Positions 3 through 28,624 of a DNA stretch of 28,624 nt are shown piece after piece; the first letter of the stretch is position 1; each line of letters opens with the position of its first letter. The notes below the pieces were generated by a model that was not told the DNA's origin, ran no database searches, and worked only from the letters and a program-made list of their open reading frames with translations. The translations under genes and the position numbers were made by a program. The DNA lies in IMG/VR virus record IMGVR_UViG_3300027373_000015, positions 1 to 28,624 of that record. One strand, given 5' to 3'. Origin of the DNA: a virus. Taxonomy: Duplodnaviria > Caudoviricetes.

Positions 3-125
3 GCCCTGAAGCTACTGGAAAATATAAAGGCATGGGACATACAACAAGCTGCTGAAAAAGGCACTTACAAACTGGTTTTGCCAACAAGATTAAGAAAAAG
101 AACACAGAAGTTGCTTAGTTTCTAA
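3..125 (+). CDS. C-terminal part of cassette ORF, truncated by window edge (...GTYKLVLPTRLRKRTQKLLSF*)
   Basis: Open frame from position 3 ending in the TAA of the first TAAC core, as for other cassettes. Confidence 0.65.
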   Translation, partial: ALKLLENIKAWDIQQAAEKGTYKLVLPTRLRKRTQKLLSF

Positions 126-245
126 CGAGTAACGAGTTAACTGGCTTGCGTAATTTGAAAATACACAAAGAAAGAAGGTGCTTATATGGGAGAAGCTACT
201 GATGCAACCACGGGCAGCAAGTCCAAGTTGAATGAGCTGTTATGC
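120..245 (-). repeat. attC-like site 1 (126 bp)
   Basis: TTCTAAC...GTTAACTGGCTTGC / GCAAGTCCAAGTTGAAT...GTTATGC; arms pair with three unpaired bases on the right arm. Confidence 0.85.
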
Positions 246-509
246 CCCACTGCTGCCCAGATTAAAGACATGCAGCACATGCTGGGTATGACTGGCAGCG
301 CACCAAAGGGACAATGGGGATACCGAAACCACTATGCTGCTTCACACGGCAACACAAAGGTACTGGAAAGCATGGCGCAACTGGTAGCGATGGGCTTGGT
401 GTCTGAAGGTTCTACCACTATTACCTTGCAATATTTTCATTGCACCCGTGAAGGCTGCAGGGCCGCTGGGTTAAGTAAAGCCGGTATCAAGCGAGTGTTT
501 GGGGCATAA
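186..509 (+). CDS. Cassette ORF, phage-type hypothetical protein (GYRNHY motif)
   Basis: ATG after AAGAAGGT in attC1 loop; stop is TAA of next core; flanks GTTATGCCCC / GGGGCATAAC complementary over 10 bp. Confidence 0.8.
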   Translation: MGEATDATTGSKSKLNELLCPTAAQIKDMQHMLGMTGSAPKGQWGYRNHYAASHGNTKVLESMAQLVAMGLVSEGSTTITLQYFHCTREGCRAAGLSKAGIKRVFGA

Positions 510-626
510 CTTACCGTGATAACCGGATTACGACACGAAGAGTGCATACAGAAAGAAGATACTGATATGGAAACTGGTAAAATTACGCCCAAAGCAAGTA
601 ATTCCGAGTTGATTAAGGCGTTAGGG
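504..626 (-). repeat. attC-like site 2 (123 bp)
   Basis: GCATAAC...GATAACCGGATTAC / GTAATTCCGAGTTGATT...GTTAGGG. Confidence 0.85.
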
Positions 627-833
627 GCGGGTATGGACTACGAAAAACAACAGGACACACTCTCTGCGCTGCAAGAAGCACGCAAATGGGTGCAAGAAGC
701 ACATGACGAGGCAGAGGGAAGACACGATACTTATGGCTTATATTACATGGATGCGTCGCAGTATGAAATAATGCAGGAAACGGAGAGGCTGCTCACACGC
801 ATAGATATGCTGTTACAACATTTAAGCCCCTAA
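567..833 (+). CDS. Cassette ORF, hypothetical protein
   Basis: ATG 567 after purine-rich GAAAGAAGA in attC2 loop (alternative ATG 633); flanks GTTAGGGGC / GCCCCTAAC. Confidence 0.75.
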   Translation: METGKITPKASNSELIKALGAGMDYEKQQDTLSALQEARKWVQEAHDEAEGRHDTYGLYYMDASQYEIMQETERLLTRIDMLLQHLSP

Positions 834-959
834 CGACCCGTGATAACCGGGTTGCGACCAAAGGAGAAAGAAATGGCCCTGAATGGATATGGCAGTGTAG
901 TAGACGATAGTCCCAAAGCTGACACAGTAAGCAACTCCGAGTTGATTAAGGCGTTAAGC
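828..959 (-). repeat. attC-like site 3 (132 bp)
   Basis: CCCTAAC...GATAACCGGGTTGC / GCAACTCCGAGTTGATT...GTTAAGC. Confidence 0.85.
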
Positions 960-1124
960 CCCGAGGACGAGCAAACAAAAGAATGGTTGGCAGAATCAGC
1001 AAGGCGCATGGCTGGTGCGGCAAAAACTTATTTGGAGCTGGAAAAGTACGATTCTGCCGCAATGTGTGCGATGCGCGCCGATGCCCTGCAATGGGCAAGC
1101 CAGTACTTGAAGCGTGGGGCATAA
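873..1124 (+). CDS. Cassette ORF, hypothetical protein (copy 1 of 2)
   Basis: AAGGAG SD then ATG 873 in attC3 loop; no in-frame ATG near the attC end; identical to 2349-2600. Confidence 0.8.
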   Translation: MALNGYGSVVDDSPKADTVSNSELIKALSPEDEQTKEWLAESARRMAGAAKTYLELEKYDSAAMCAMRADALQWASQYLKRGA

Positions 1125-1247
1125 CGTAACAAAGATAACCGGCTTGGGGAATATTACCCAACCAGAAACGGAGATAGAAAGTGACGGACAAGAATACAGC
1201 AAATTCAGAGGAGCATCCCCAAGTCCGAGTTGATTGCGGCGTTAGGT
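1119..1247 (-). repeat. attC-like site 4 (129 bp)
   Basis: GCATAAC...GATAACCGGCTTGGGGA / TCCCCAAGTCCGAGTTGATT...GTTAGGT. Confidence 0.85.
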
Positions 1248-1582
1248 ACATGCCAATGAGCCAAGAAAATATACTAAATATAGCCAGAAAAACACTGGAT
1301 ACAGGGCTTGATTTTGGCCGGACAACTAGAATTACGCGTGCAACAGACAAAGAACTGATTGATTTTGCCAATGCAATAACAGGTACATGGATGCCAATTG
1401 ATACGGCACCTAGAGACGAACGTGTTTTACTCTGGAACGGTACTGGGACGTATTGTGGCCACTGGGCAAAGAGTATTGAAACAGATGATGAAGCCTGGAT
1501 CATAGCTGAGTTTGGAAACGAGGGGGATCAGCTACTGATAAAGGCTACTCACTGGATGCCACTGCCTGCGCCGCCCGTTTAG
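1181..1582 (+). CDS. Cassette ORF, DUF551-like phage protein
   Basis: WMPIDTAPRD...VLLW...THWMPLPAPP signature typical of DUF551-type phage proteins; GGAG then GTG in attC4 loop; flanks GTTAGGTAC / GTACCTAAC. Confidence 0.8.
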   Translation: MTDKNTANSEEHPQVRVDCGVRYMPMSQENILNIARKTLDTGLDFGRTTRITRATDKELIDFANAITGTWMPIDTAPRDERVLLWNGTGTYCGHWAKSIETDDEAWIIAEFGNEGDQLLIKATHWMPLPAPPV

Positions 1583-1583
1583 T

Positions 1584-1705
1584 ACCTAACGATAGAATTA
1601 ACTGGCTTGCGGAGCCGAAGCGAAAGGATAAGACCAATGAGCGACAAAAAAAATGCTGGAAATGCGCCCGAAAATAGCAAGTCCAAGTTGAATGATGCGT
1701 TAGGG
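1584..1705 (-). repeat. attC-like site 5 (122 bp)
   Basis: ACCTAAC...ATTAACTGGCTTGC / GCAAGTCCAAGTTGAAT...GTTAGGG. Confidence 0.85.
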
Positions 1706-1831
1706 GCGCAGGAGGTTTGGGGATATGGTGAAGACAACGATGGGTGGTACGTGAGCTGTAATGATGAACAGATAGCATGGGCGGCATCAGAAATTAATGC
1801 CAAACGCATTGCCGAGCGAATGAATGCCTGA
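1637..1831 (+). CDS. Cassette ORF, small hypothetical protein
   Basis: AAAGGA SD then ATG 1637 in attC5 loop, reads SKLNDAL through the arm. Confidence 0.7.
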   Translation: MSDKKNAGNAPENSKSKLNDALGAQEVWGYGEDNDGWYVSCNDEQIAWAASEINAKRIAERMNA

Positions 1832-1843
1832 ATTACGGTAAGC

Positions 1844-1975
1844 CTCTAACGTAACTAAGATAACCGGCTGGCGATGCCGGAGAGGAGAAGCCAAATGAGC
1901 CTACAAACTAACGACAGAGAAGCCGCTGAAATTGCTGACACGGTAAGACAGTCCGAGTTGATTGAGGCGTTAGGT
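1844..1975 (-). repeat. attC-like site 6 (132 bp)
   Basis: CTCTAAC...GATAACCGGCTG / CAGTCCGAGTTGATT...GTTAGGT. Confidence 0.8.
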
Positions 1976-1999
1976 ACGGAGGGGACTGACCATGAATGA
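1895..1999 (+). CDS. attC-encoded leader peptide (34 aa, MSLQTND...SELIEALGTEGTDHE), not in ORF track
   Basis: GAGGAG SD, ATG 1895, stop in cATGAATGA overlapping the start of the next ORF. Confidence 0.55.
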   Translation: MSLQTNDREAAEIADTVRQSELIEALGTEGTDHE

Positions 2000-2309
2000 C
2001 TTTGTAGCCAGATGCCGAGAATGGCAGGCAAAAAATACTGATTACACTCTGATGTGCGACACCAACGGCACTGACATATTTTATGTGCAGTGGAATGAAC
2101 TGTCAAAATCACACAGAATGGCATGGATTGGTAAATACGGGCGTGCGGCAAAGGATGCATTTGAAGAGTTTGCAATTAAAAAATGCAAAGTGCCGCAATT
2201 TGTATTGACTGCTGACATGCGCTTGCTTCCTGACCCGCTGTACAACTGGCCACACGGTGATGCAATGCTGGTTTTCCAGACCAAGCAAGATGGTGTTCCA
2301 TTGGTCTAA
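1992..2309 (+). CDS. Cassette ORF, hypothetical protein
   Basis: GGAGGGG SD; stop is TAA of next core. Confidence 0.8.
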   Translation: MNDFVARCREWQAKNTDYTLMCDTNGTDIFYVQWNELSKSHRMAWIGKYGRAAKDAFEEFAIKKCKVPQFVLTADMRLLPDPLYNWPHGDAMLVFQTKQDGVPLV

Positions 2310-2435
2310 CGACCCGTGATAACCGGGTTGCGACCAAAGGAGAAAGAAATGGCCCTGAATGGATATGGCAGTGTAGTAGACGATAGTCCCAAAGCTGACA
2401 CAGTAAGCAACTCCGAGTTGATTAAGGCGTTAAGC
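2304..2435 (-). repeat. attC-like site 7 (132 bp; body identical to site 3)
   Basis: GTCTAAC...GTTAAGC; identical to 830-959 from CTAAC onward. Confidence 0.85.
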
Positions 2436-2600
2436 CCCGAGGACGAGCAAACAAAAGAATGGTTGGCAGAATCAGCAAGGCGCATGGCTGGTGCGGCAAA
2501 AACTTATTTGGAGCTGGAAAAGTACGATTCTGCCGCAATGTGTGCGATGCGCGCCGATGCCCTGCAATGGGCAAGCCAGTACTTGAAGCGTGGGGCATAA
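2349..2600 (+). CDS. Cassette ORF, hypothetical protein (copy 2 of 2)
   Basis: Identical to 873-1124. Confidence 0.8.
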   Translation: MALNGYGSVVDDSPKADTVSNSELIKALSPEDEQTKEWLAESARRMAGAAKTYLELEKYDSAAMCAMRADALQWASQYLKRGA

Positions 2601-2722
2601 CGTAACTAAGATAACCGGCTTGGGGAATATTACCCAACCAGAAACGGAGATACCAAGTGACCGACGAGAATACAGAAATTCAGAGCAGCATCCCCAAGTC
2701 CGAGTTGATTGCGGCGTTAGGG
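2595..2722 (-). repeat. attC-like site 8 (128 bp; close relative of site 4)
   Basis: GCATAAC...GATAACCGGCTTGGGGA / TCCCCAAGTCCGAGTTGATT...GTTAGGG. Confidence 0.85.
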
Positions 2723-2752
2723 GTGAAGCCGAGGAGATGTTGCCATGAATAA
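2657..2752 (+). CDS. attC-encoded leader peptide (31 aa, MTDENTEIQSSIPKSELIAALG...CCHE), not in ORF track
   Basis: GGAG then GTG 2657; stop in cATGAATAA overlapping ATG 2745. Confidence 0.5.
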   Translation: MTDENTEIQSSIPKSELIAALGVKPRRCCHE

Positions 2753-2939
2753 ACCCTATTTTGTAATACTTAATTGCAGTAATGGCGGTATTACTCCGCT
2801 GGTTACTGGTGATTTACACGAGGAATTGGCTACGTTTGACTCAGAAGACGAGGCCGCAGAAGCCGCACGAAACAACACGCTTGGTAATTTCTTCGGCTTC
2901 GAGGTTTTTTGTGCTGGCTGCGGCGAACTTAACGGTTGA
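2745..2939 (+). CDS. Cassette ORF, small hypothetical protein
   Basis: GAGGAG SD; flanks GTTAGGGGT / ACCCCTAAC. Confidence 0.75.
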   Translation: MNKPYFVILNCSNGGITPLVTGDLHEELATFDSEDEAAEAARNNTLGNFFGFEVFCAGCGELNG

Positions 2940-2941
2940 AC

Positions 2942-3002
2942 CCCTAACGACCAGAGTTAACCGGCGGGCGTTTAGCCCGTCCGAGTTGAACGAGCGTTAG
3001 AG
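2942..3002 (-). repeat. attC-like site 9 (61 bp, classical short 59-be-like form)
   Basis: Minus strand reads CTCTAAC GCTC GTTCAACTCGGACGGGC TAAAC GCCCGCCGGTTAAC TCTGGTC GTTAGGG, matching canonical attC top-strand layout. Confidence 0.9.
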
Positions 3003-3018
3003 GCTGAAAGGACAAAAC

Positions 3019-3249
3019 ATGCAAAACGTTGAATACCAACCATATATGCCGAGTTGCGGAACTGAGATGATGCAATTTTACGCCAATTTCTGCGACCAAT
3101 GCGCTGACCCTGACGAGGTTTTGTGGAGCGAAAAACAGGAAGGCTCTGGATGCAAGTTTATCATTGAGGCCACTGCGGAAAGCAAACAGCCTGAACCGTG
3201 GGTGATAAAAGACGGCTGCGCTTGCTGCCTAAATTTCAGAAGACTCTAA
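3019..3249 (+). CDS. Cassette ORF, Cys-rich hypothetical protein (possible metal binding)
   Basis: Own AAAGGA SD; CDQC and CACC motifs; stop is TAA of next core. Confidence 0.75.
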   Translation: MQNVEYQPYMPSCGTEMMQFYANFCDQCADPDEVLWSEKQEGSGCKFIIEATAESKQPEPWVIKDGCACCLNFRRL

Positions 3250-3367
3250 CGAAAACGAGATAACTGGCTTGCGACAAGAAGCAACCGGACAGGAAAGAGG
3301 AACTGATATGGAAAACGTAACAAACAAGGATGAGGTAAGCAAGTCCGAGTTGATTGAGCCGTTAGAG
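3244..3367 (-). repeat. attC-like site 10 (124 bp)
   Basis: CTCTAAC...GATAACTGGCTTGC / GCAAGTCCGAGTTGATT...GTTAGAG. Confidence 0.85.
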
Positions 3368-3736
3368 GCCCGAAATGCAATACAGCCTCTTTACACCGAC
3401 GAACACGGCACACTGAGGTTTAAGGGCAATGCCATTGTGAAATACCTGCTGGATAATGGAGGCATAAACCTTAACGACCTTGCCCGTATTGAGTTTAGCC
3501 AAGATGACCAGCAACACTTTGCCCAACTGATAGGCTACAGCCTGAGTGGATATGGCGACCTAAGCTACGTTGATGATGCCAGCTACGAGGCCGCTGCAAC
3601 TATGGCTGAGGATGGTCTGGACGAGAAAGACGCGCGGATTGCCACGCTGACACAGAAGCTGAATGCTCTTAAAGCAGCATTGCAGTTGCCGCTGGCAGAG
3701 TTGTTTGGTGTGCATCCCGACGACCTTAGCCTCTAA
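3308..3736 (+). CDS. Cassette ORF, phage-type hypothetical protein (RFKGNAIV...FAQLIGYSLSGY)
   Basis: AAAGAGGA SD then ATG 3308 in attC10 loop; flanks GTTAGAGGC / GCCTCTAAC. Confidence 0.8.
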   Translation: MENVTNKDEVSKSELIEPLEARNAIQPLYTDEHGTLRFKGNAIVKYLLDNGGINLNDLARIEFSQDDQQHFAQLIGYSLSGYGDLSYVDDASYEAAATMAEDGLDEKDARIATLTQKLNALKAALQLPLAELFGVHPDDLSL

Positions 3737-3750
3737 CGAGTATTAGACCC
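3731..3750 (-). other. Putative attI-like simple site closing the array
   Basis: CTCTAAC core not followed by an attC hairpin but by a short inverted box (TCTAA cgagta TTAGA), then AT-rich DNA. Confidence 0.45.
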
Positions 3751-3775
3751 CCTAATTTTTACCAAATACGACACA

Positions 3776-3805
3776 TTGACCACATAACCGATAATACAGT
3801 ATAAA
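3776..3805 (+). promoter_or_regulatory. Possible sigma70 promoter
   Basis: TTGACC-18 nt-TATAAA upstream of ORF 3827. Confidence 0.35.
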
Positions 3806-3826
3806 AAACGACAAAAAGGCCGTCAC

Positions 3827-4093
3827 ATGATCCACATCACCACCCTCATAACCCTGCAGTCTAAACACGACAGGGCCTGTTCAAAACACGACTGGACCGG
3901 ATACACCCTGGCAGACATGAACGCTGCAGCAGCCGGTGAGCAATTAGAGATCACCCAGGCCGAGGGACGCGGACAGATCCACGGCCCCCATGGCGTCATT
4001 GATGAAACCTATGACCTGATCGCCGTACTACTGCGCAAGGTAGAAGCGCTGGAAGGGACGCCCCATGCAAGCAATCAGAACCCTACTGCTTGA
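3827..4093 (+). CDS. Hypothetical phage protein
   Basis: 88-aa ORF after putative promoter; DETYDLIAV weakly recalls all-alpha NTP pyrophosphatases. Confidence 0.6.
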   Translation: MIHITTLITLQSKHDRACSKHDWTGYTLADMNAAAAGEQLEITQAEGRGQIHGPHGVIDETYDLIAVLLRKVEALEGTPHASNQNPTA

Positions 4094-4238
4094 CCCCCGC
4101 GTCTTCAGCTACCTAATTATGGGGCTCTACCTGCTCAACGCCCTGCGCTGGGCCTATGAACGTAAACCGGCTAATGTCTGCTACTGGCTCTCAGCCCTGG
4201 CAATCACCGCAACCGTAACCTTTGGGTATAAACACTAA
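4065..4238 (+). CDS. Small membrane protein (57 aa, MQAIRTLLLDPRVFSYLIMGLYLLNALRWAY...), not in ORF track
   Basis: GGAAGGGA SD, two hydrophobic stretches, TAATG overlap with next gene. Confidence 0.65.
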   Translation: MQAIRTLLLDPRVFSYLIMGLYLLNALRWAYERKPANVCYWLSALAITATVTFGYKH

Positions 4239-4903
4239 TGTCAGCCAACCACGCCACAGACCTGCAGGCCATCCTTGACGCTGCCATTGCCACCGCCAAG
4301 GCCAACCCCACCGCTGCCAACATCAGCACCGTGGAAAAGGCCCGCAAAGCCGTGGATGACTACAACTCTGCCCAGGCTGGTGACCCTGCTGGTGAAAAGT
4401 TCAAAACACAGGCCGCTGCCCTGCAATACCTGCAGCGCACCTGGAAGATCGAAAAAAGCAAACTCTCTGCCGATGTCCAGTCTGGCAAAGTACCCCGCAA
4501 GGATGGCTTGTTCTCTGCCAAAGATCTGGACTACTACGCCAACGCCGTCCGGCTGGATCTTAAAACCAGCGAACCACAACAAAGCAGTGATGGCCTGTCA
4601 GATGATATCAAGCGCGAAACAGCGCGCAGACTGAGAATCCATAACGAAGAACGCGAAGGCCTACTGATCAACAGGCTGGAAGAAGAGGCCAGGGATGCCA
4701 AGCTCTGGTCAGCAGTAAAATCAGATATTGAAAACCACGCCCCTGTCATTGTGCATGAACTAATCAACCGGCTGCTGCCGATTATTGAAGACGATGAACT
4801 TCGCGCCAGGGTGTTGTCACTAACTCATGAACTGAGGCTGGTATATGAGGATGCTATTGCAGATATCTTTGACCGTTACGCAAAGATAGAGGGCGAAGAG
4901 TGA
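4238..4903 (+). CDS. Probable terminase small subunit (Nu1-like position)
   Basis: Directly upstream of and overlapping (GTGA) the large subunit; helical, ARRLRI...EG.LI segment reminiscent of Nu1-like proteins. Confidence 0.6.
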   Translation: MSANHATDLQAILDAAIATAKANPTAANISTVEKARKAVDDYNSAQAGDPAGEKFKTQAAALQYLQRTWKIEKSKLSADVQSGKVPRKDGLFSAKDLDYYANAVRLDLKTSEPQQSSDGLSDDIKRETARRLRIHNEEREGLLINRLEEEARDAKLWSAVKSDIENHAPVIVHELINRLLPIIEDDELRARVLSLTHELRLVYEDAIADIFDRYAKIEGEE

Positions 4904-6801
4904 GCATTGCAACCCTGCCCATACCTGCGGCGCCGCGCCCCAGGGCAGCAGAACGCAAGGTCTTTGCCAAGCGCAAGCGCTTGCATGGGCCGCAGTGGTT
5001 TGAACGTAACATCAACGTTCCGGTCGGCAGCCGTCAGGGCCTCTATCGCAACCAGAACAACCCTGCCATGTGGGGCGTGCTTGATTGGTCTACCAGATCC
5101 CATGTCAGGGTTACGGTGTTGGCCAAGGGTATCCAGATCGGCGGCACCCTGGCTTTTTACGGCCTGCTGCTGCGCGAAGGGGAATACACCAGCGATAACG
5201 CCCTGATTGTTGTTGCCGATGAACGCACCCTGAAAAAGCTGATCAAAAAACGGCTGCAGAAAATGATCGACAGCAGCCCTAACCTGGCCGCCATTAAATC
5301 AGCAAACCCCGATGACACCACCATGTACAGCGTTACCTTGGGTAACGGATTCACCATCGAGGGCGGCTGGGCATCATCAGAAGTTTCGGTATCGTCTGAA
5401 TCCTACCGGGTAGTCATCCTGGACGAAATCAGCAAATACAAATCACGGGGCAACATTGAAGATGCAAAAAGCCGTGCCACCGTATTCCCTGACACACACA
5501 AGATCTGGATCCTCTCCAGCCCCGGCATAGACACCGATGACCCGGAAAACCGTGATCCCCTCATGGTAGAGGCTGAAGCATGTGACGTGATGCTTGAATT
5601 TCACGCCAAATGCCCTGATTGCGGAAAAGAACAGGTAATGACCTTTGACCGGTTCGGCTGGCCCGGACAAGTCAATCTTGAAGGCAAAACAGAGGCAGAC
5701 CACAAGGCAATCCGCCGCAACCGCTCTGCCTGGTACCAGTGTGAACACTGTAATAGCCGCTGGAATGACTACAAGCGCGACAAAGCCGTGCTGGCCAGCA
5801 TGAAAACCGGCTGGAAACCAACCGACGGCTGCGACATCGAGCAACCCCAGTCGGTATATTTCCACTTTCCGGCCTGGCTCTCTCCCTATGTCAGCCTATC
5901 TGAAGTGGCGGCAAGCTGGCTTGAGGCCCAGGGGGATGAAGAGAAACTACGCAAGTGGTACAACCGCTTTGCCGGGGTAAGCCACCGCGTCAACAGCACC
6001 CATGCACCAGAGCTGGACGCCCTTGCCGATCGTGCCGAAGTCTACCCGGCAGAAGTGCCGATGAACGCCGGTATTCTTACCGCCGGGGTAGACGTACAGA
6101 TCAACCGGATAGAGATTGAAGTTGTGGCCTGGGGTGTAGGTAATGAATCGTGGGGCATAGAAAACAACGTCTTTTACGGTGACCCACGGCTGCCCGATGT
6201 CTGGGGTCAGCTCGACACCTACCTGATGAAGCGCTGGAAGCATGAAAGCGGGGTAGAAGTCGGCCTTTCACGTACCTTTGTAGACTCTGGCTACTGTACC
6301 AGCCACGTCTACAAATTCACCTCACCACGCAAGCCCCGCAACATCTACGCCGTTAAGGGGGCATCATCGGCAGAGGCTGCAGAGATCCTGGGGCCAACCA
6401 AACAGAGAATAGGATTAATCAAGGCAGAGGCCTTCATATTGGGCGGAAATAAATTAAAAAGCACCATGTTTGGCTACTTTGATATTACCCAGCCCGGCCC
6501 TGGCTACTGTCACCTACCTGACACCTACGACAAGACCTGGTACGAACAAATGCAGGCAGAACACCAGGTAGCCCAGAAGACAAGCGGTAAGCTGGTACAG
6601 GTCTGGCAAAAGAAAAAGGCCAACCTTGCCAACGAAGCCATAGACAAGCGCCAATATGCCCTGGCCGCGCTCATGTCTCTGAGGGTGGATATCAGGGCGC
6701 AAGTGGCAGCATTAAAATCTGCAGCAGCAAACCTTAACAAACCACAACAGCAAGCGGCATCAGGCCCAACAGGCGGATTTGTTCGCGGATGGAGACGATA
6801 A
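4900..6801 (+). CDS. terL: Terminase large subunit, lambda GpA family
   Basis: K.xQxG.T motif, VVILDE Walker B, CPDC/CEHC zinc motif, LTAGVDVQ nuclease motif, NEAID. Confidence 0.93.
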   Translation: MSIATLPIPAAPRPRAAERKVFAKRKRLHGPQWFERNINVPVGSRQGLYRNQNNPAMWGVLDWSTRSHVRVTVLAKGIQIGGTLAFYGLLLREGEYTSDNALIVVADERTLKKLIKKRLQKMIDSSPNLAAIKSANPDDTTMYSVTLGNGFTIEGGWASSEVSVSSESYRVVILDEISKYKSRGNIEDAKSRATVFPDTHKIWILSSPGIDTDDPENRDPLMVEAEACDVMLEFHAKCPDCGKEQVMTFDRFGWPGQVNLEGKTEADHKAIRRNRSAWYQCEHCNSRWNDYKRDKAVLASMKTGWKPTDGCDIEQPQSVYFHFPAWLSPYVSLSEVAASWLEAQGDEEKLRKWYNRFAGVSHRVNSTHAPELDALADRAEVYPAEVPMNAGILTAGVDVQINRIEIEVVAWGVGNESWGIENNVFYGDPRLPDVWGQLDTYLMKRWKHESGVEVGLSRTFVDSGYCTSHVYKFTSPRKPRNIYAVKGASSAEAAEILGPTKQRIGLIKAEAFILGGNKLKSTMFGYFDITQPGPGYCHLPDTYDKTWYEQMQAEHQVAQKTSGKLVQVWQKKKANLANEAIDKRQYALAALMSLRVDIRAQVAALKSAAANLNKPQQQAASGPTGGFVRGWRR

Positions 6802-6802
6802 C

Positions 6803-7015
6803 ATGGCATCACCATATCTTACAATCGGACAGGTAGCGCAAAAGCTGGGGGTCAGCACCCGTACCGTCCGCAACTGGTGGCTGTCAGGTAAAACCTCTTT
6901 GCAGGTCTGGTGCCCTGGCCACCTGCTGGGTAAAACAGGCATCAAGTTTACACGGAAAAGTGTGGAAGTTTTCATACAACAAGGCAACGTGAAGCCCGAA
7001 GAATACACGAAATAG
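6803..7015 (+). CDS. Helix-turn-helix DNA-binding protein (MerR/excisionase-like)
   Basis: YLTIGQVAQKLGVSTRTVRNW; GGAG SD. Confidence 0.85.
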   Translation: MASPYLTIGQVAQKLGVSTRTVRNWWLSGKTSLQVWCPGHLLGKTGIKFTRKSVEVFIQQGNVKPEEYTK

Positions 7016-7032
7016 CTCACTGTACATGCAGT

Positions 7033-7077
7033 GAAAAAGTCGAAAAAGTCGAAAAAGTCGAAAAAGTCGAAAAGGCC
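7033..7077 (+). repeat. Tandem 9-bp repeat GAAAAAGTC x4 plus one variant
   Basis: Directly visible in intergenic gap. Confidence 0.95.
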
Positions 7078-7099
7078 TACATGCTTTTCGGCTTTTTTT
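7061..7099 (+). terminator. Hairpin / possible intrinsic terminator overlapping the repeats
   Basis: AAAAAGTCGAAAAG pairs with CTTTTCGGCTTTTT, ending in a T run. Confidence 0.45.
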
Positions 7100-7118
7100 A
7101 TTGCACGCTCTAACCACC

Positions 7119-7685
7119 ATGAGCGTAACCATACCAACAACCGAACCGCAGCAACTTCAGGCCGGTGATTCCATCAAATGGAAGATCAGCCTGGCTGATT
7201 ATCCGGCCTCTGCTGGCTGGTATCTTAAGTACCGGCTGCTGGCATCAAGCGGCAAGATTGATATCAGATCTAACGCTGATGGTGATGACCACCTGGTTGC
7301 AATCACTGCTGCTGCCTCTGCAGCCTGGTCCGCCGGTACCTACACCATGCAGCGCATGGTTACCAACGACACAGACCGCTACACCCTTGACACCCGTACC
7401 ATCCAAATCCTGCCTGATCTGTCAGCAGCAACCGACGCAACCGATACCCGCACACAGGCACGCCGGGCACTGGATGCTATTAACGCCGTACTTGAGGGTC
7501 GTGCCTCCCGCTCTGATGCAGAGTATGAAGTTACCACCGCTGGATCTACCCGCAAACTTAAGTCCTTAACTACAGAGCAACTGCTTCCCCTGCTGCAGCA
7601 TTACACTCTGGCTGTCTGGCGTGAACAGAACCCCGGCAAGCTCTGCCCGCAACTACGCCTTAATGTGAGGTGTACCAATGGGTAA
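7119..7685 (+). CDS. Head completion / head-tail joining protein (gpW-like position)
   Basis: Between terminase and portal; LDAINAVLEGRA...EYEV...RKL C-terminus. Confidence 0.65.
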   Translation: MSVTIPTTEPQQLQAGDSIKWKISLADYPASAGWYLKYRLLASSGKIDIRSNADGDDHLVAITAAASAAWSAGTYTMQRMVTNDTDRYTLDTRTIQILPDLSAATDATDTRTQARRALDAINAVLEGRASRSDAEYEVTTAGSTRKLKSLTTEQLLPLLQHYTLAVWREQNPGKLCPQLRLNVRCTNG

Positions 7686-9207
7686 GCTCAGTCGCATGGT
7701 CAACCGTGCCCTATCTGCCGTGGGCCTGCGCCGTGTGCGCAACTCCGGTATTGTCCCTGGCACAGAATCCTATCAGATCCTGAAAGAGTGGATTGAAAGC
7801 CCGTTAAAGGGTGCCGGTTCGCTTGATTGGGATCTGCGCAACAAGATCAGATCTACCCGTACCACCTCCCGCAAGCTGGCCCTTAATAACCCGCTGGTAC
7901 GTCAATATTTGCAGCTGCTTGAGCAAAACGTCATCGGCCCGCGCGGTATGCGCCTGCAGTGTCAGGTGCGTGATGCTGACGGAAAACTGAATAAATCCAT
8001 CAACAACGCCATTGAAGCCGCATTTGCTGATTTCTGGCGTTACCCCTGGGTAGATGGCCGCCTGTCCGGTGTACAGGGCGAGCAGCTGCTTATCCGCACC
8101 ATGGCTGTTGATGGTGAGGCCTTTGTCCGTCGCGTGCTGGGTAGCCGCTTCAAGTACGGCATGGCCCTGCAAATGATTGATGCAGACCTGGTTGATCATC
8201 ACCTTAACCGTCCCCGTGGTGCCAACGGAGAAAATGAAATTAGGCTGGGTATTGAAGTTGATGAATGGGGTGCGGATGTTGCCATCTACGTGCTGGAATC
8301 TGGCCAGCAGGATATTAACGGCGGACGTTCACAGCGCAAGCACAACCGTATACCGGCATCTGAAATCATCCACCTTTACGATCCAGAGCGGATCAATCAG
8401 AGCCGGGGCATTACCTGGCTGAACTCGGTTGCTTTGTCGCTCAACATTCTGGACGGCTATGTAGAAGCTTCTTTGGTTACTGCCCGTACCGCTGCCTGCT
8501 CCATGCCTATGTTCAGGCACACCAACACAGAGGCATACAGCACCGATTCAAGCGGCAACCCTGTAGCACAAAACTTTAGCATCGAACTAAACCCAGGCGG
8601 TGGTCTTACTCTTCCGCCCGGACTCGAAATGCAGGAATTCGACCCCAGCAAGCCAACTATCGGCTTTGGGGAATTCACCAAAGAGAACAAGCGCTGGGTT
8701 TCATCCGGCATGCAGGTTTCTTACAACGCCCTGGCTAATGACCTTGAAGGGGTCAACTACTCCAGTATGCGTTCAGGGCTGCTGATAGAGCGTGATTCAT
8801 GGCAGTGCCTGCAACAGATGTGGGTAGATCGTTTCAGACACCCGGTGCATGCCTGGTTTGTGCCTGCTGCAATTCTCTCAGGTAACCTTCGGTTGCCCAC
8901 CCGTGATGCCTCCCTGTATCTGGCTGCCCGCTTTATACCTCGTGGCTGGAAGTGGGTTGATCCGCTCAAAGATGTTACCGCCGCTGTATTGGCCATTAAA
9001 GAGGGGCTTGGTTCCCGCACCGGATTCCTGGGCGAACAGGGCGAAGATTTTGAAGCCATTGTTGAGCAGCTGGCGGATGAAGCCAACATTACCAGTGATG
9101 CCGGTATCACCCTGGGAGAAGATCAACAACAGAACCAGCAGCAGAATAGTGATAAGCGCCTGATGGCCGCCCTACGTCTGCTGCTTGCAGAAGAAAAGGA
9201 GGCATAA
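7678..9207 (+). CDS. Portal protein, lambda family
   Basis: SRKLALNNP, VDGEAF, Q.RG, VNYSSMRSGL, WVDPLKD motifs. Confidence 0.93.
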   Translation: MGKLSRMVNRALSAVGLRRVRNSGIVPGTESYQILKEWIESPLKGAGSLDWDLRNKIRSTRTTSRKLALNNPLVRQYLQLLEQNVIGPRGMRLQCQVRDADGKLNKSINNAIEAAFADFWRYPWVDGRLSGVQGEQLLIRTMAVDGEAFVRRVLGSRFKYGMALQMIDADLVDHHLNRPRGANGENEIRLGIEVDEWGADVAIYVLESGQQDINGGRSQRKHNRIPASEIIHLYDPERINQSRGITWLNSVALSLNILDGYVEASLVTARTAACSMPMFRHTNTEAYSTDSSGNPVAQNFSIELNPGGGLTLPPGLEMQEFDPSKPTIGFGEFTKENKRWVSSGMQVSYNALANDLEGVNYSSMRSGLLIERDSWQCLQQMWVDRFRHPVHAWFVPAAILSGNLRLPTRDASLYLAARFIPRGWKWVDPLKDVTAAVLAIKEGLGSRTGFLGEQGEDFEAIVEQLADEANITSDAGITLGEDQQQNQQQNSDKRLMAALRLLLAEEKEA

Positions 9208-9210
9208 CCC

Positions 9211-11190
9211 ATGCCTGAAAAGAAATTCTACTCAATCAAAGCCATGGCAGAAACCAACACGGCTGAGATCTTTATCTATGAGCAGATTGGTGAAGATTGG
9301 TGGACCGGTGAAGGAATTGCCGCGAAAAACTTCTGCAAAGAAGTGGCTGCCCTCAAGGTTAACCAGATCGATCTGCACATTAATAGCCCTGGTGGTTCGG
9401 TGTTTGATGGTCAGGCCATCTACAACGCACTCAAGCGCCACCCTGCCAGCGTCACCACCTACGTTGACGGTATTGCCGCTTCAATCGCCTCAGTTATTGC
9501 CCTGGCTGGTGACACTGTCGTTATGGCCCCCAATGCCCTCTATATGATTCATAACCCTTGGGGCCTGGCACAAGGCAGCGCCGATGAAATGCGCAAGTAT
9601 GCAGACCTGCTGGACAAGGTGCGTGACACCATCGTTTCTGTCTACCGCGAAAAGTGCGGCCTGTCTGATGAAGAGATCATTGCTGCCATGGATGCAGAAA
9701 CCTGGATGAGTGCAGAAGAAGCCCAGGCGTTTGGATTTGTAGATCAGATTGGCGACGAACTGAAGCTGGCTGCCATGGCACTGAAAGGCGCTTCTGAGTT
9801 TGACTTCAAGGCCCTGGGCTTCAAAAAAGCCCCGGCCATTTCCGCAAGCATTACCTCTGCTCCGGCAGAGACACCACAAACGGCCCCACAGGCCGAAATA
9901 AAGGAGGCTCCAATGCCTAACGTAGCTGTTGGAACCCCGGCTGCCGGGGAACGTAACCATCAGAGCGAAGCTGCAGAAATTGCAGCAATGTGCGCACAGA
10001 ACCACTGTGCAGACCGTGCATCAGGATTTATTAAAGCCGGTCTCACCCCTGATCAGGTCGGGCGCCAGATTCTTGATCTACACGCATCCGGCGCACTAGC
10101 CACCCCTGCTGCAGAAGCCCCGGCACTGGTAGACATGGGTAAAGATGCTAAGCTGTACAGCTACCAGAAAGCTGTACTGGCTGCTATTGAAATGCGCGAA
10201 GGCCGCAACGCATCCGGGTTTGAGTATGAAATCCACCAAGAGATCGCCAAGCGTCTGCCCCAAAACTACCAGGCCAAAGGTGGCATTTTTATGCCTATGC
10301 GGGTGCAGAACACCGTGCTTACCACCGGAGGTACCAACACCGGTGCTGAAACCGTATTTACTGAGTACGGTGAATTCATCGACCTGCTGCGCAACATCTC
10401 TGTTGTTGCCCGCATGGGTGCCCGTACTCTAACTGATCTGCGCGGCCCGATCACCTTCCCGAAACAGACCGGCGCAAGCACCGCATACTGGGTAGGTGAA
10501 AACCCAGGCGCCGGTGTAACTCAGAGCAACCCCACCTTTGGCACCATGACTATGAGCCCCAAAACCATGCAGGCAACCGGTGCAGTATCCCGCCAGCTGC
10601 TGGTACAGTCTACGCCTGATGTTGAAGGTCTGGTACGTGAAGATCTGGCAGCAGTCCACGCCCTTGGCTGGGATCTGGCCGCCCTGCACGGAACCGGAGC
10701 AGCAAACGACCCAACCGGCGTATATGTAGCTGCTGGTGTCAATGCTGTTGCTATGGGTGGTGTGCCAACCTTCGGCAAGCTGGTAGACATGGAGACCGAA
10801 ATCAACAAAGACAATGCCCTGATCAACAATATGGGCTTTGTAACCACCTCTGGTATGGCCGGAAAGATGCGCCAGACCCTTGAAAGCGCCACCGCTGGTG
10901 CCCGCTGGATCTGGGACGGCAACGCCATGGAAGGCATCATGGCTGGCTACCGTGCGGTATCCAGTAACCAGGTTAAAGCAAATCTTGGCACAGGTACAGA
11001 TGAACACGGCATTGTCCTGGGCAACTGGGCTGACATGCTGATCGGTATGTGGGCAGGCCTGGAGCTGATTGTTGATCCGTACACCCTGGCTGACCAGGGG
11101 CTGGTCAAAGTCACCTCGTTCCAGATGTGTGACGTAGGCCTGCGCCGAGCAGAATCTTTCTGCAAGGCCACTGGAGCCAAGCTAGCCTAA
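9211..11190 (+). CDS. ClpP-type prohead protease fused to major capsid protein (HK97 fold)
   Basis: INSPGGSVFDG, GIAASIAS, MIHNPW, ETWMSAEEA..GFVD followed by capsid motifs (AYWVGE, GTGAANDPTG, GNWAD, VDPYT). Confidence 0.92.
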   Translation: MPEKKFYSIKAMAETNTAEIFIYEQIGEDWWTGEGIAAKNFCKEVAALKVNQIDLHINSPGGSVFDGQAIYNALKRHPASVTTYVDGIAASIASVIALAGDTVVMAPNALYMIHNPWGLAQGSADEMRKYADLLDKVRDTIVSVYREKCGLSDEEIIAAMDAETWMSAEEAQAFGFVDQIGDELKLAAMALKGASEFDFKALGFKKAPAISASITSAPAETPQTAPQAEIKEAPMPNVAVGTPAAGERNHQSEAAEIAAMCAQNHCADRASGFIKAGLTPDQVGRQILDLHASGALATPAAEAPALVDMGKDAKLYSYQKAVLAAIEMREGRNASGFEYEIHQEIAKRLPQNYQAKGGIFMPMRVQNTVLTTGGTNTGAETVFTEYGEFIDLLRNISVVARMGARTLTDLRGPITFPKQTGASTAYWVGENPGAGVTQSNPTFGTMTMSPKTMQATGAVSRQLLVQSTPDVEGLVREDLAAVHALGWDLAALHGTGAANDPTGVYVAAGVNAVAMGGVPTFGKLVDMETEINKDNALINNMGFVTTSGMAGKMRQTLESATAGARWIWDGNAMEGIMAGYRAVSSNQVKANLGTGTDEHGIVLGNWADMLIGMWAGLELIVDPYTLADQGLVKVTSFQMCDVGLRRAESFCKATGAKLA

Positions 11191-11203
11191 TCAAACCTGA
11201 AAC

Positions 11204-11227
11204 GGGCGGCCTGTAATGAGGCCGCCC
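11204..11227 (+). terminator. GC-rich hairpin after capsid gene
   Basis: GGGCGGCCT-gtaatg-AGGCCGCCC; no T tail, so may be an mRNA stabiliser. Confidence 0.45.
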
Positions 11228-11245
11228 TGTAATGAGGACATACCT

Positions 11246-11527
11246 ATGAAAAAATATAAAGTATTACGCGGCTTTTGCCTTGGTGCCGGGAAAGATGTTC
11301 ATCCTGGCGAAGAAATTGAGCTGACGCCTGAACGGGCAGAACTTTTTATCCGTCAAGGCCGTATCAAGCTGGTCACAGACCCGATTGACATGAACAAGGC
11401 CGCCCTGCTGGCCAGTATCGCCATTGCCGAGTCGGTTGAAGTGCTTAACGAGCTGGTAGGCGCTGAAGAGACAGACACTGAAATTGTTGAAGCCTATGAA
11501 GCCCGTGCTGCAGAGCTTGAAGGGTGA
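11246..11527 (+). CDS. Hypothetical head-associated protein
   Basis: GAGGA SD; follows capsid gene. Confidence 0.7.
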   Translation: MKKYKVLRGFCLGAGKDVHPGEEIELTPERAELFIRQGRIKLVTDPIDMNKAALLASIAIAESVEVLNELVGAEETDTEIVEAYEARAAELEG

Positions 11528-11832
11528 GTATTCCAGGCTCTGAAATAGCCAGCATATCGCTGGCTGACTTCGGCGAACCCTGCACCCTGCAGCATAGAGC
11601 AACCCGCCGCCCGGTCACCGCTATTGTCTCAGACATCAACGAACCCGGCCGCGTGATCATGGGCGAAGGTCCGGCAGATGAACACAGCATCGAACTGGCA
11701 GCAGCAGAGGCCGCCGGTGTCAACACAGACTGGACCGCAACCGTCCAGGCAACCGGCATTACCCGCCCTGTGTTGTGGGTATCGCCACCCAATGCAGGCT
11801 TTGTCAAAATCATCCTGGGGGCTGCAGTATGA
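11524..11832 (+). CDS. Putative head-tail adaptor
   Basis: Position, size, overlapping start/stop; LADFGEP N-terminal motif. Confidence 0.55.
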   Translation: MSIPGSEIASISLADFGEPCTLQHRATRRPVTAIVSDINEPGRVIMGEGPADEHSIELAAAEAAGVNTDWTATVQATGITRPVLWVSPPNAGFVKIILGAAV

Positions 11833-12275
11833 GCACCGTAACCTACAGCCAGATCGTGCAGCACATGGTGGCCACCCTGGTCAACCTGCTGCCGGTAAAG
11901 CACAGGGCCAGCGTTATTGCCTGGCCTGATCGCCCCGATGATCTGACTGAACAGAAGCTGGAAAAAGATCATCCTAACGGTTGCTACGCCGTTCGGTATC
12001 TGAAATCAACTGCAGGCGAAACCGGACACGAAACCGCCCTGTTCGGCGTGGTGCTGGTGGCAAACGGTTTTACCCGTGTGGGCAACATGGCAGCCACAGC
12101 AAAGATAGCCATGCAGGATGAAGTATCACCCCTGGGTCAGAAGTATACCTTTGCCGGGGTAGAACCGATTGAGCACCTGGCAGGCTGGGTGAAAGACACC
12201 GCAATATTTTCCGTATTCAGAGGGAAGCAGAGCATTACAAACAAGGCCGCGTTAATAGCGGATCTCAATCTTTAA
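11829..12275 (+). CDS. Putative tail terminator (Gp37-like)
   Basis: ATGA overlap; WPDRPDD...HPNG motif; precedes tail tube. Confidence 0.55.
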   Translation: MSTVTYSQIVQHMVATLVNLLPVKHRASVIAWPDRPDDLTEQKLEKDHPNGCYAVRYLKSTAGETGHETALFGVVLVANGFTRVGNMAATAKIAMQDEVSPLGQKYTFAGVEPIEHLAGWVKDTAIFSVFRGKQSITNKAALIADLNL

Positions 12276-12285
12276 GGAGAAAACC

Positions 12286-13056
12286 ATGCAAGGACCATTG
12301 AGAGCAACAAAGTATTTCATGCCTCAGGGCCGGTTGATGATGGCAGAAAAAGACCCCACCACCGGCGAACCGATGGGCTTTATTCATGTCGGAAACGCCG
12401 TTGATATCAAGGCCTCTCTCAACGTATCAACCATCGACAAGAAAGAGGCAATGACCGGTCAGTTTGGCTTGGCTGCCCAGTTTGAAAACGAAAAAGGCGT
12501 TAACTTTTCTTTCACCCTGGAAAGTTTTCACGAAGAAAATCTGGCAATGGCATTGCGTGCCAACATCACAACCATTGGTGCAGGTACAGCCGCTGACAAG
12601 CCTATAAAATTGTACAAAGGCAAAGAGATGGTCCTGCCGCATATCAAGGCCACGGTAACGGAAATCACTTCAGCTGATGGAGCGACTACTTATGTTGCAG
12701 GTACCGATTACATCGCTTACGACAACTCTGTGCTAGTGCCTGCTGCATCTGGTGCCCTTGCTACTGCTGACACCGGCGATGGTGTTGACGTGCTGGTCAC
12801 CTACAGTTACCCCGCTCAAAAGAAAGTTGATTCGTTCACCACTGGCCAGAAAAGTTACTGGTTCTGGCTGGATGCCATTGACGCTGCTAATGATCTGGGC
12901 GTGAAGAGCTTCCACTTTTACAAAGTCAACCCGCAGCCACTGAAAGAACTGCTGCTGATCTCAAGCGAACCGGGGAATATCTCCATTGAAGGTGCCTGTA
13001 TGCTGGATGAAACCCGTCCGTCTGGCACGTCAAAATTCTTCAGCTACAGCGAATAA
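12286..13056 (+). CDS. Major tail tube protein
   Basis: TAAGGAG SD; YFMPQGR...VGNA...ENLAMAL pattern typical of siphovirus tube proteins. Confidence 0.75.
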   Translation: MQGPLRATKYFMPQGRLMMAEKDPTTGEPMGFIHVGNAVDIKASLNVSTIDKKEAMTGQFGLAAQFENEKGVNFSFTLESFHEENLAMALRANITTIGAGTAADKPIKLYKGKEMVLPHIKATVTEITSADGATTYVAGTDYIAYDNSVLVPAASGALATADTGDGVDVLVTYSYPAQKKVDSFTTGQKSYWFWLDAIDAANDLGVKSFHFYKVNPQPLKELLLISSEPGNISIEGACMLDETRPSGTSKFFSYSE

Positions 13057-13069
13057 CCGATGCAGGCCA

Positions 13070-13096
13070 GCGGGGATGATTTCTAATCATCCCCGC
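13070..13096 (+). terminator. Perfect 12-bp hairpin after tail tube gene
   Basis: GCGGGGATGATT-tct-AATCATCCCCGC. Confidence 0.5.
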
Positions 13097-13153
13097 GCAC
13101 AAGCACCGATTACAACCATCCTTTGTCGGAGAACACCGACCAGGAGCCACGTA

Positions 13154-13423
13154 ATGACCACCACCATAACCTTCAAAGCCTCAATCAAAGAAAGCATGAT
13201 CTCTCTTGATCAGTTTTTAAACACCCGCGTTTCAGTCGCTGATGATGGCTATGGTTATGCTGATGAAATGCTGTCTGCTCGTGCTTGGCGTTTGCGTGAA
13301 AAATCAAGGCTGTATGTGTGGATTGATCGGCTGTTCTTCTGGGATAAAGATCATTGTAAAGAATGCTACGAAATTGAACTTGAGCGTAAGCAGTTGCCGC
13401 CTGAGTACAGGGTGTTTAAGTAA
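13154..13423 (+). CDS. Small phage protein (SLDQFLN...DEMLSARAWR...IDRLFFW..DHC)
   Basis: AGGAG SD; motif pattern familiar from phage tail/lysis regions. Confidence 0.75.
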   Translation: MTTTITFKASIKESMISLDQFLNTRVSVADDGYGYADEMLSARAWRLREKSRLYVWIDRLFFWDKDHCKECYEIELERKQLPPEYRVFK

Positions 13424-14724: not shown

Positions 14725-14736
14725 AGGAGCATACCA

Positions 14737-16239: not shown

Positions 16240-16561
16240 GATACTACGCACTCAACAGATCATTATTGATCTGCCCAAGCCAGGCGCTGAACCGTGGATG
16301 CAAGTGGTGGTGCAGTACGTTGAAATGTCTGACGATCTGCAGGAGGTTATCAACACGGTAGGCACCTGGAACCAGTTTAGTGTCCGTGTTGCTGCTGTTG
16401 CTGGCTCTTTGTATCCGCTGGTTGATCCCGTGCAGCCTCCTGCTGGACTGATCAGTAACGCCGGTATCGTGCAATCAATTGGGCTATCAGTCATTGACAT
16501 GATCATTAAGCGCTATGGCGGCACCTTTGATCCGGCAACCGGCGACATCGTACTGGAGTAG
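16232..16561 (+). CDS. Hypothetical protein
   Basis: ATG overlapping upstream stop; fills gap in operon. Confidence 0.65.
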   Translation: MRKILRTQQIIIDLPKPGAEPWMQVVVQYVEMSDDLQEVINTVGTWNQFSVRVAAVAGSLYPLVDPVQPPAGLISNAGIVQSIGLSVIDMIIKRYGGTFDPATGDIVLE

Positions 16562-16563
16562 CA

Positions 16564-17049
16564 ATGGCCCTGATAGACCACATAGATGGTGCAAACCGCG
16601 ACATCTACCTAAGCGCAGACACCGTGGGTGCCTCTATCCACCCGATTTCCATTTACAAAGAGTATCGGGGACTGCGTCGCACTGACGAAACCCTGCGCCG
16701 GTTCTCCCCCCTGCTGTCTGCCAAGGGTAACGATTTCAAGGGTGGTGGCAAATACACGGAACGGTACGTGATTGAACACAATGGCACCAGGATCATCCCC
16801 TATGACGTGAGCCATGCACTGACGATAACCGGAACGATCATCACTGACGATGGACAAGAGGGCATCGCCTGTTTTGACCGTACACCATTAAGCAGCACCA
16901 CCCGTGTGGATATCAACTACGTTCCGCCACAGGTAGAAATTATTCAGGTGTCCTCCGGCAGCGGGCTATCAACTGAAGAGCACAACAAGCTGATGGCGGT
17001 ACCAACGGCAACCGGCAACGCAAGTGCGGTTTGGGAGTACACCCGGTAA
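16564..17049 (+). CDS. Hypothetical structural protein, N-terminus paralogous to 14737 ORF
   Basis: GGAG SD; MALIDH...RR.DETLR shared. Confidence 0.7.
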   Translation: MALIDHIDGANRDIYLSADTVGASIHPISIYKEYRGLRRTDETLRRFSPLLSAKGNDFKGGGKYTERYVIEHNGTRIIPYDVSHALTITGTIITDDGQEGIACFDRTPLSSTTRVDINYVPPQVEIIQVSSGSGLSTEEHNKLMAVPTATGNASAVWEYTR

Positions 17050-28542: not shown

Positions 28543-28547
28543 ATACA

Positions 28548-28575
28548 ACAAGGGCTTACTTTCGTAAGCCCTTGT
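28548..28575 (-). terminator. Hairpin immediately 3' of the tRNA
   Basis: ACAAGGGCTTAC-tttc-GTAAGCCCTTGT perfect 12-bp stem. Confidence 0.65.
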
Positions 28576-28579
28576 AATT

Positions 28580-28624
28580 TGGCGTCCCCTGCAGGATTCG
28601 AACCTGCGACCTACGGCTTAGAAG
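28580..28624 (-). tRNA. tRNA-Arg(TCT), 3' half, truncated by window edge; probable prophage att core
   Basis: Reverse complement CTTCTAAGCCGTAGGTCGCAGGTTCGAATCCTGCAGGGGACGCCA: anticodon loop CT-TCT-AA, T-loop GGTTCGAATCC, CCA end. Confidence 0.9.

Follow-up and report, generated by a model that had tools for sequence, protein, structure and literature searches.

A string of small open reading frames (ORFs), interspersed with hairpin-like repeats just ahead of the terminase genes in the viral record IMGVR_UViG_3300027373_000015 (Caudoviricetes), raises the question of whether an integron-type cassette array can be a working part of a phage genome and, if so, which integrase would mobilize it. 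The window analyzed here is this entire virus record, a contig of 28,624 nt. A preliminary description, prepared from the letters of the sequence prior to any database search, had interpreted the region as an array of attC recombination sites that the phage uses to shuffle genes. The feature is real and appears to work like an integron cassette array. We assign a probability of about 0.7 to the following interpretation: it is an attC array of reversed polarity that ends in an attI insertion site of the host type, the window has no integron integrase gene (intI), the phage is likely temperate on Geobacter-type bacteria, and the cassettes are likely moved in trans by the chromosomal integrase (IntI) of the host.

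Structure of the ten attC-type sites

Ten sites of 61-132 nt, each beginning with TAAC and ending with GTTA, were located between 120 and 3367 as previously described (120-245, 504-626, 828-959, 1119-1247, 1584-1705, 1844-1975, 2304-2435, 2595-2722, 2942-3002 and 3244-3367), and a lone TAAC follows at 3734. They are bounded by inverted R''/R' cores (RYYYAAC / GTTRRRY), the extrahelical bases that mark one arm of the attC L stem (2-3 bases, with a conserved G and T) are present as T, A and G at all ten, and the central spacers between the R and L boxes (8-11 nt and 6-7 nt) are non-complementary. Once the extrahelical T, A and G are looped out of the 3' arm, 118 of 120 arm positions pair, with 12/12 in eight sites and 11/12 in the other two. 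Covariation of the arms had been proposed, and among the seven distinct arm pairs 61 of 63 variable positions indeed pair, as against 48.6 with shuffled partners (p 4e-4); the exchange of CGG/CCG for TGG/CCA cited in its support does not hold at site 10, where the arm is TGG/CCG. The core ahead of an ORF matches the core behind the same ORF at 42 of 50 positions, as against 22 of 50 for the core of its own site (permutation p 4e-5; p 8e-5 without the duplicate cassette), so that better pairing across the ORF than within the site stands as a rule, with the exception of cassette 6 (1/5). Likewise, sites and ORFs alternate, but not strictly with single ORFs, given that sites 6 and 8 bear a short leader ORF overlapping the main one.

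Out of 75 candidate loci, 29 were kept by hand as true sites, four overlapping or near-identical ones were set aside and the rest, which we judged to be chance or protein-coding matches, served as controls. The strict site detector gave no matches in 876,528 nt of these control loci (both strands counted). It overlooked the short sites of IntI-bearing phages (see below), which a looser detector recovered together with four weak matches in 24.8 kb of structural genes of the window. A short-loop site pattern had no match in the window, and neither did Rfam, a result that is uninformative on attC identity. Minimum free energy z-scores on the minus strand range from -1.03 to +0.79 for the nine long sites, which are therefore not unusually stable, and reach -3.25 for the 61-nt site. 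The array is laid out as follows, with the + strand corresponding to the attC bottom strand:

3..125, + strand: 3' end of the cassette 0 ORF (C-terminal 40 aa of a 74-aa protein; P0121, 74 aa, is 98% identical), its stop being the TAA of the first core; the contig breaks here
120..245, + strand: attC site 1, containing the start of ORF 186-509
186..509, + strand: ORF 1, 107 aa, phage family of unknown function (phrog_13561, E 8e-9; nearest Atlas clusters score 0.96-0.97 and are mostly viral)
504..626, + strand: attC site 2, containing the start of ORF 567-833
567..833, + strand: ORF 2, 88 aa, no family
830..1130, + strand: site 3 and ORF 3 (873-1124, 83 aa), an exact duplicate of 2306-2606 ending at or just past TAAC
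1119..1247, + strand: attC site 4, containing the start of ORF 1181-1582 in a shifted frame
1181..1582, + strand: ORF 4, 133 aa, with a C-terminal DUF551 (PF04448, E 3e-5; phrog_924)
1584..1831, + strand: attC site 5 and ORF 5 (1637-1831, 64 aa), which starts within the site
1844..1975, + strand: attC site 6, nearest to host chromosomal attC, encoding a 34-aa leader (1895-1999) that overlaps ORF 6
1992..2309, + strand: ORF 6, 105 aa, of the sole cassette with non-pairing cores
2306..2606, + strand: site 7 and ORF 7 (2349-2600), the second copy of the duplicated unit
2595..2939, + strand: attC site 8 with a 31-aa leader (2657-2752) overlapping ORF 8 (2745-2939, 64 aa)
2942..3249, + strand: short attC site 9 (61 nt) and ORF 9 (3019-3249, 76 aa; phrog_6074, E 7e-7), which starts behind the site
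3244..3736, + strand: attC site 10 and ORF 10 (3308-3736, 142 aa), which starts within the site; the attI-proximal cassette
3731..3761, - strand: attI homologue of the host chromosomal type, predicted insertion point TAA|C at 3734-3737

Reversed polarity and translation starts within the sites

The bottom, recombining strand of attC is marked by extrahelical G and T (Bouvier 2009, PMC2727003), and the aadA7 bottom strand given in Table S3 of Qi et al. 2023 (PMC9892861) has its extra bases in the 3' arm. All ten window sites score 9.5-14.5 with the extra bases in the 3' arm, versus 3-4 in the other orientation. As it is the ORF-sense strand that carries the extra T, A and G, + corresponds to the attC bottom strand, and as the ORFs also lie on +, they are antisense to the canonical cassette direction. 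All ten are on the bottom strand and point towards attI, whereas in integrons the ORFs occupy the top strand and are read away from attI. Judged by the placement of the extra bases, every cassette ORF of the window thus reads as inverted relative to bacterial cassettes, a feature that the preliminary description overlooked, as it did the attI homologue at 3734.

To place this polarity in a wider context, we used a stop-at-core test, which counts ORFs of at least 50 aa that end at one core only, because the longest ORF is a noisy measure of orientation in GC-rich DNA. The ratio of + only to - only was 52:8 for viral and 6:81 for bacterial sites (Fisher p 3e-24), the comparison covering 101 unique viral sites (6 of the 52 from the window, and the contigs taken as viral by label) and 225 bacterial sites. 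The bacterial set came from a pattern scan of 12 of 64 parts of the genome contigs, in which 162 stretches were found and the flanks of 80 examined; the arrays it revealed were long in Holophagaceae and shorter in Geobacter, Gracilimonas and others. Chromosomal arrays of the same site family adjoin integron integrases (all five tested proteins score above the TIGR02249 cut-off), with intI on the + strand to the right of the array.

Of the nine long window sites, seven have the start of the ORF within the loop, from where the frame continues across the 3' arm (shifted at site 4). Short leaders overlapping the next start are encoded at sites 6 and 8, and at the short site 9 the start lies behind the site. 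Seven of the ten ORFs end exactly on the TAA of the core and the other three stop 7-18 nt earlier. Loops containing a ribosome-binding site (RBS) and an ATG, with a frame that extends beyond the core, were found in 35 of 85 long viral sites versus 7 of 236 bacterial ones. Sites 4 (1119-1247) and 8 (2595-2722) are near-identical, and a one-base indel in the loop shifts the leader between two reading frames.

The mobile unit and its rearrangements

With + as the bottom strand, the crossover would fall at TAA|C, and each site would move with the ORF behind it. The unit of mobility, as read from the sequence, accordingly begins at the C of one TAA|C, takes in the site together with the ORF that follows, and ends with the next TAA. 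The canonical arrangement, in which a site follows its ORF, was rejected, as the relatives show each site travelling with the ORF behind.

The clearest case is provided by two related phage contigs, L037 and L043, which are 100% identical save for a 700-bp unit of site plus methylase whose ends share only four bases (TAAC). Four shared bases are too few for homologous recombination. The same unit has different neighbors in L300, an exact tandem copy extends from TAAC to TAAC in L304, exact copies ending at TAAC occur in L090, and L109/L110 follow the same pattern. Some shared segments (e.g. L098/L110) begin elsewhere within a site, and the strict site patterns were not found in the stretches examined of the terminase relatives L002-L005.

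Comparable joints are seen in sequencing runs, those with small shares of window sequence having been left out. The unit of ~300 nt that is present twice in the window has a depth of 1285 in run X1, as against about 650, so the duplicate is real. In runs X2, X4 and X6, among the matches listed, the pieces matching window cassettes end at 126, 507-510, 1126, 2304 and 3738, and in X4 the end of cassette 0 is joined to three other sites, 0-2 nt past TAAC. Comparison with related contigs and runs thus shows such units being acquired, copied and joined to new neighbors at TAAC. The preliminary description had placed the crossover at TAA|C and had named cassette gain and reordering at this position across relatives as the check on its proposal; both are seen (L037/L043, L300, L304 and the runs). 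Together with the presence of intI at the same position in related phages, these gains, duplications and new neighbors support its view of the region as a gene-shuffling locus.

The attI homologue and the candidate integrases

Relatives of the window terminase at 94, 85 and 76% identity were found in 3 of 239 genomes of the order containing a Geobacteraceae genome, which we take to be the Geobacterales. Given these relatives and the tRNA-type right end that the window shares with a prophage in genome G218 (see below), we infer a phage that is probably temperate and has Geobacter-type bacteria as hosts. From 3734 onwards, 22-24 of 28 nt are identical to the attI candidates of seven chromosomal integrons of this order, where attI lies upstream of intI, at a distance of 137-146 nt in five and of 479 and 733 nt in the other two. 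Identified by this homology, the element lies at the right end of the array, where canonical geometry places attI. An exact 25-nt attI pattern was found only in the phage contig L069 and in a copy of the window's phage. In L069 the element (60 nt at 93%) stands behind a different cassette, and its 16-kb contig (L448) has no tyrosine recombinase motif. There (L069:7694-8050, also L448) the host-type attI and a similar array lie between terminase/helix-turn-helix genes and head-tail/portal genes, i.e. at another genome position.

No recombinase was detected among the 43 window ORFs scanned with profiles, including those in the 24.9 kb to the right of the array, the left end of the contig being cut; the statement that no integrase is in view was thus accurate. 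IntI proteins scoring above the TIGR02249 cut-off are present in 104 of the 239 genomes. The G218 prophage, which is 82% identical to window 3826-8073, has the order array-attI-intI-terminase, with five detected sites, an attI motif unlike that of the window and an intI stop that overlaps the homologue of ORF 3827-4093. Hence intI lies beside attI in the G218 prophage and not in the window. An intI of the G218 type lies between strings of small genes and the terminase or other late genes in L037/L043, L300-L304 and L325, and sites were detected in all of these except L303, with just one in L302. The L037 protein scores 357.7 bits (TIGR02249 cut-off 265), and R140, K165, H271, R274, H302 and Y311, the catalytic set of an integron integrase, are invariant in 24 sequences. 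Relatives of the protein range in identity from 60 to 98%, beyond which it falls to about 52%. In a tree from a quick search, with viral rows chosen by patterns from the same clade and hence biased in sampling, eight phage-type rows and other viral IntIs separate with branch support 100 from 28 rows from genomes of the order. The phage group thus has two versions of the locus, namely one with its own intI and its own attI, and one with a host-type attI and no intI.

Upstream of the phage-clade intI a conserved motif extends from the terminal TAAC to near TATAACCGG (L132:4400-4508, L300-L304, L325, L412). This motif ending near TATAACCGG is probably the phage attI, overlapping the intI promoter. 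L439, which is labelled chromosomal and adjoins a terminase gene, falls outside the phage IntI clade; therefore the phage IntIs are not all of one lineage, which suggests that phages captured intI more than once. In two more genomes of the order, intI stands directly or shortly upstream of prophage terminase genes (L439, i.e. G110:C200, and G152:C53:48136-49065).

Probable traffic with the host integron

The phage and the integron of its host likely exchange genes. Run X1 has cassette 0 on a 353-nt contig of double depth (1365), which forks right after TAACG into site 1 of the phage (658) and into a branch (767) whose 24 nt are identical to those of the chromosomal attI candidate of L430. On the simplest reading, one copy of cassette 0 is in the prophage and another is the newest cassette of the host integron, which would explain why the window contig starts at this point. 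The chromosomal array of G216 has 11 scored cassettes, of which two are inverted, five canonical and four unclear, and one of the inverted cassettes has an RBS and ATG within its 115-nt site. Site 6 of the window is 84% identical over 116 nt to a chromosomal site in a Geobacteraceae genome (E 2e-29), and since this site also has a purine-rich stretch and an ATG in its loop, the start signal may be partly older than the phage; alternatively, the Geobacteraceae site may itself be phage-derived. In a DNA search of the 239 genomes (E 1e-25) the window cassette ORFs were not found and only site 6 was matched.

Two loci from this survey stand apart. A chromosomal cassette at L451:3501-4084 has a bottom-strand pair of genes resembling, by eye, a toxin-antitoxin module, the known kind of inverted cassette in bacterial integrons. 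At L069:504-3467, neighboring ORFs have near-identical C-terminal segments, and a gene there resembles, again by eye, an accessory protein of diversity-generating retroelements, possibly marking such an element.

Proposed mechanism and alternative explanations

Under the interpretation that we favor, IntI would excise units as circles and insert these into the 3734 attI. A phage transcript running rightwards would traverse the array in the direction of attI, so that new cassettes would land promoter-distal, carrying their own ribosome-binding sites. Phage cassettes in the host integron, and host cassettes in the phage, would be antisense to the local promoter and silent. Sibling phages encode an IntI themselves and have another attI in this position. 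More tentatively, we raise the possibility that temperate phages and their hosts share one cassette pool of opposite polarity, wherein phages have rebuilt the attC loop as a translation start and use either host attI and IntI or their own IntI clade. Each partner would then store the cassettes of the other silently in antisense, and phage accessory genes would be a direct source and sink of chromosomal cassettes.

Several observations weigh against the favored interpretation. The contig is cut at cassette 0, and an intI could lie further to the left. The predicted probability of the recombining fold spans 0.0003-0.79, being below 0.06 at six of the ten sites and at least 0.38 at four, as compared with a median of 0.42 for host chromosomal sites (n=29). 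A promoter scan gave five matches versus 4.8 by chance, with no convincing promoter, including Pc, and the terminator scan was also at chance. The polarity split is not absolute, with eight viral sites being canonical-only; the longest-ORF measure is divided 39:15 for viral as against 18:133 for bacterial sites, and the arrays of phages TJE1 and Rctr41k have canonical polarity. Cassette 6 breaks the core rule and ORF 6 is found in X2 and X4 without site 6; this cassette is therefore chimeric, and events other than recombination at TAAC also shape the array. Joints of the circle type are absent among those listed, assembled contigs being prone to drop rare forms. The host-type branch in X1 is only 24 nt long and could belong to another mobile element, and X1 may itself be the source of the window. 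Lastly, the two inverted ORFs of G216 have no PHROG match.

The alternative that survives best retains the same cassette system and attributes its movement to an integrase of the phage clade, encoded in the missing left part or by a co-resident phage. It accords with the truncation of the contig at its left end, with the close relatives that do have IntI (the G218 prophage, L037/L043, L300-L304 and L325) and with the site types that these have in common with the window. However, in those phages intI stands right of the array and the attI motif is one of their own, the window at that very position has a host-type attI and no intI, and the contig bearing the same attI (L069) lacks a tyrosine recombinase motif; we hence consider this alternative unlikely. 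It is less probable still that the array is a relic, once assembled by IntI and now fixed, with reshuffling solely by homologous recombination between similar sites. The chimeric cassette 6, the low predicted folding at six sites, the frameshifted or truncated leaders at sites 4, 6 and 8, and the arms of 20-30 nt common to the sites would be expected in that case, but the L037/L043 indel has just four shared bases, identical cassettes have many neighbors with breaks at TAAC instead of being scattered along the shared arms, and the arms, extra bases and attI are intact. That the repeats are translation leaders or RNA elements, as their purine-rich loops with RBS and start codons might suggest (the empty Rfam result explains neither way), or that the array is an assembly artefact, is largely refuted and very improbable, as on chromosomes these sites make up arrays next to bona fide intI in which the ORFs occupy the opposite strand, complementarity of cores across ORFs is unexpected for leaders, the X1 contigs match the window without differences (among the pieces listed) with the duplicate at double depth, and another contig, L001, is 100% identical across window 2506-16798.

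Gene setting and cassette-encoded proteins

Profile searches with Pfam and PHROG of the 43 window ORFs identified a gpA-type terminase, a lambda-type portal, a ClpP-capsid fusion, and tail, tape-measure and lysis genes. Features next to the array and at the right end of the window are:

3827..4093, + strand: small ORF with a homologue directly behind intI in the related G218 prophage
4238-4903, + strand: probable small terminase, by position only
4900-6801, + strand: gpA-type large terminase (PF05876, PF20454; phrog_15)
28547..28624, - strand: hairpin and 3' half of a tRNA gene (anticodon loop TCT), likely a prophage att region

Over 78 nt, the last of these matches the G218 prophage at its integrase end with 96% identity; ARAGORN did not find a whole tRNA at the right end of the window. 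At 13423-17049 the tail module is split, ahead of the lysis genes, by ORFs with no Pfam or PHROG match, two of them large (433 and 500 aa) and several small.

Among the cassette proteins, ORFs 1, 4 and 9 match phage families of unknown function. No function was named for any of them by Pfam (one real match, DUF551), NCBIfam or PADLOC, which yielded only fragments at E 0.004-0.01 that we treated as chance. An Atlas search with ORF 10 gave scores below 0.9, and tblastn of the window ORFs against the collected loci recovered only copies of the window and one weak match.

Relationship to known systems

The preliminary description regarded integrons as generally described on chromosomes, plasmids and transposons rather than in phage gene programmes. 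This does not hold, as attC arrays and integrons in phages have been published (Qi et al. 2023, PMC9892861), including 17 attC-site clusters that have no integron-integrase (CALINs) and phage sites that were recombined by IntI1. These CALINs, which have 2-4 sites each in Table S1 of that paper, resemble the window in being attC arrays of phage genomes without intI and in including methylase cassettes. However, the window differs in its ten sites, its inverted ORFs starting inside the sites, its host-type attI and the observed gain and reshuffling. TJE1, an example from the same study, differs in the canonical polarity at the two sites that we detected in it. In the available part of that paper, searched by terms, there is no remark on ORFs antisense to attC, nor do the tables covered name Virus Rctr41k (L458; KX853513), where we observed at 4680-9431 an IntI-like gene annotated as xerD, behind which five long attC-like sites lie on the same strand, their ORFs being canonical in polarity.

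A CALIN comprises at least two attC sites with no intI nearby and may be mobilized by an integrase elsewhere in the genome, according to Cury et al. 2016 (PMC4889954). With ten sites and no intI in the 24.9 kb to its right (the left side is missing), the window array is a CALIN by this definition. With intI absent from the window and its ORFs in reverse polarity, it does not qualify as a canonical integron or a complete one. Unlike a CALIN so defined, it retains an attI homologue and reverses the polarity of its ORFs. The 'inverted integron-integrase' type differs in that intI is flipped there, and the ORFs in the window. The sedentary chromosomal integrons of the Geobacteraceae type and of Holophagaceae share with the window the attC family (84% over 116 nt), the extra bases and the attI (22-24/28 nt) on the same side of the array. 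They differ in having their ORFs on the opposite strand, intI following attI, and homogeneous sites (mostly 126 nt) seldom with a start codon. Unusual features of the window are the reversed ORF polarity, the presence of translation starts within sites and an attI of the host type; a literature search, thin on subscription journals and bioRxiv supplements, turned up no report of cassettes in inverted orientation, of start codons within attC or of a phage clade of IntI for this group of hosts.

Implications for phages and their hosts

The polarity of integrons is thought to serve the reading of captured genes from Pc, as put forward by Bouvier 2009 (PMC2727003). A systematically opposite polarity, with start codons built into attC, would mean that the system serves the gene programme of the phage and is not an accidental passenger. 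It also gives the mosaic regions of small genes in temperate phages a site-specific explanation. With a host-type attI, and a cassette found beside both phage site 1 and an attI of the chromosomal type, traffic of cassettes from phage to chromosome becomes directly testable, and this in non-pathogenic bacteria. The mechanism that creates new cassettes is unknown (Cury 2016, PMC4889954); a cassette pool shared by phage and host, if true, would open a route into the unsolved origin of cassettes.

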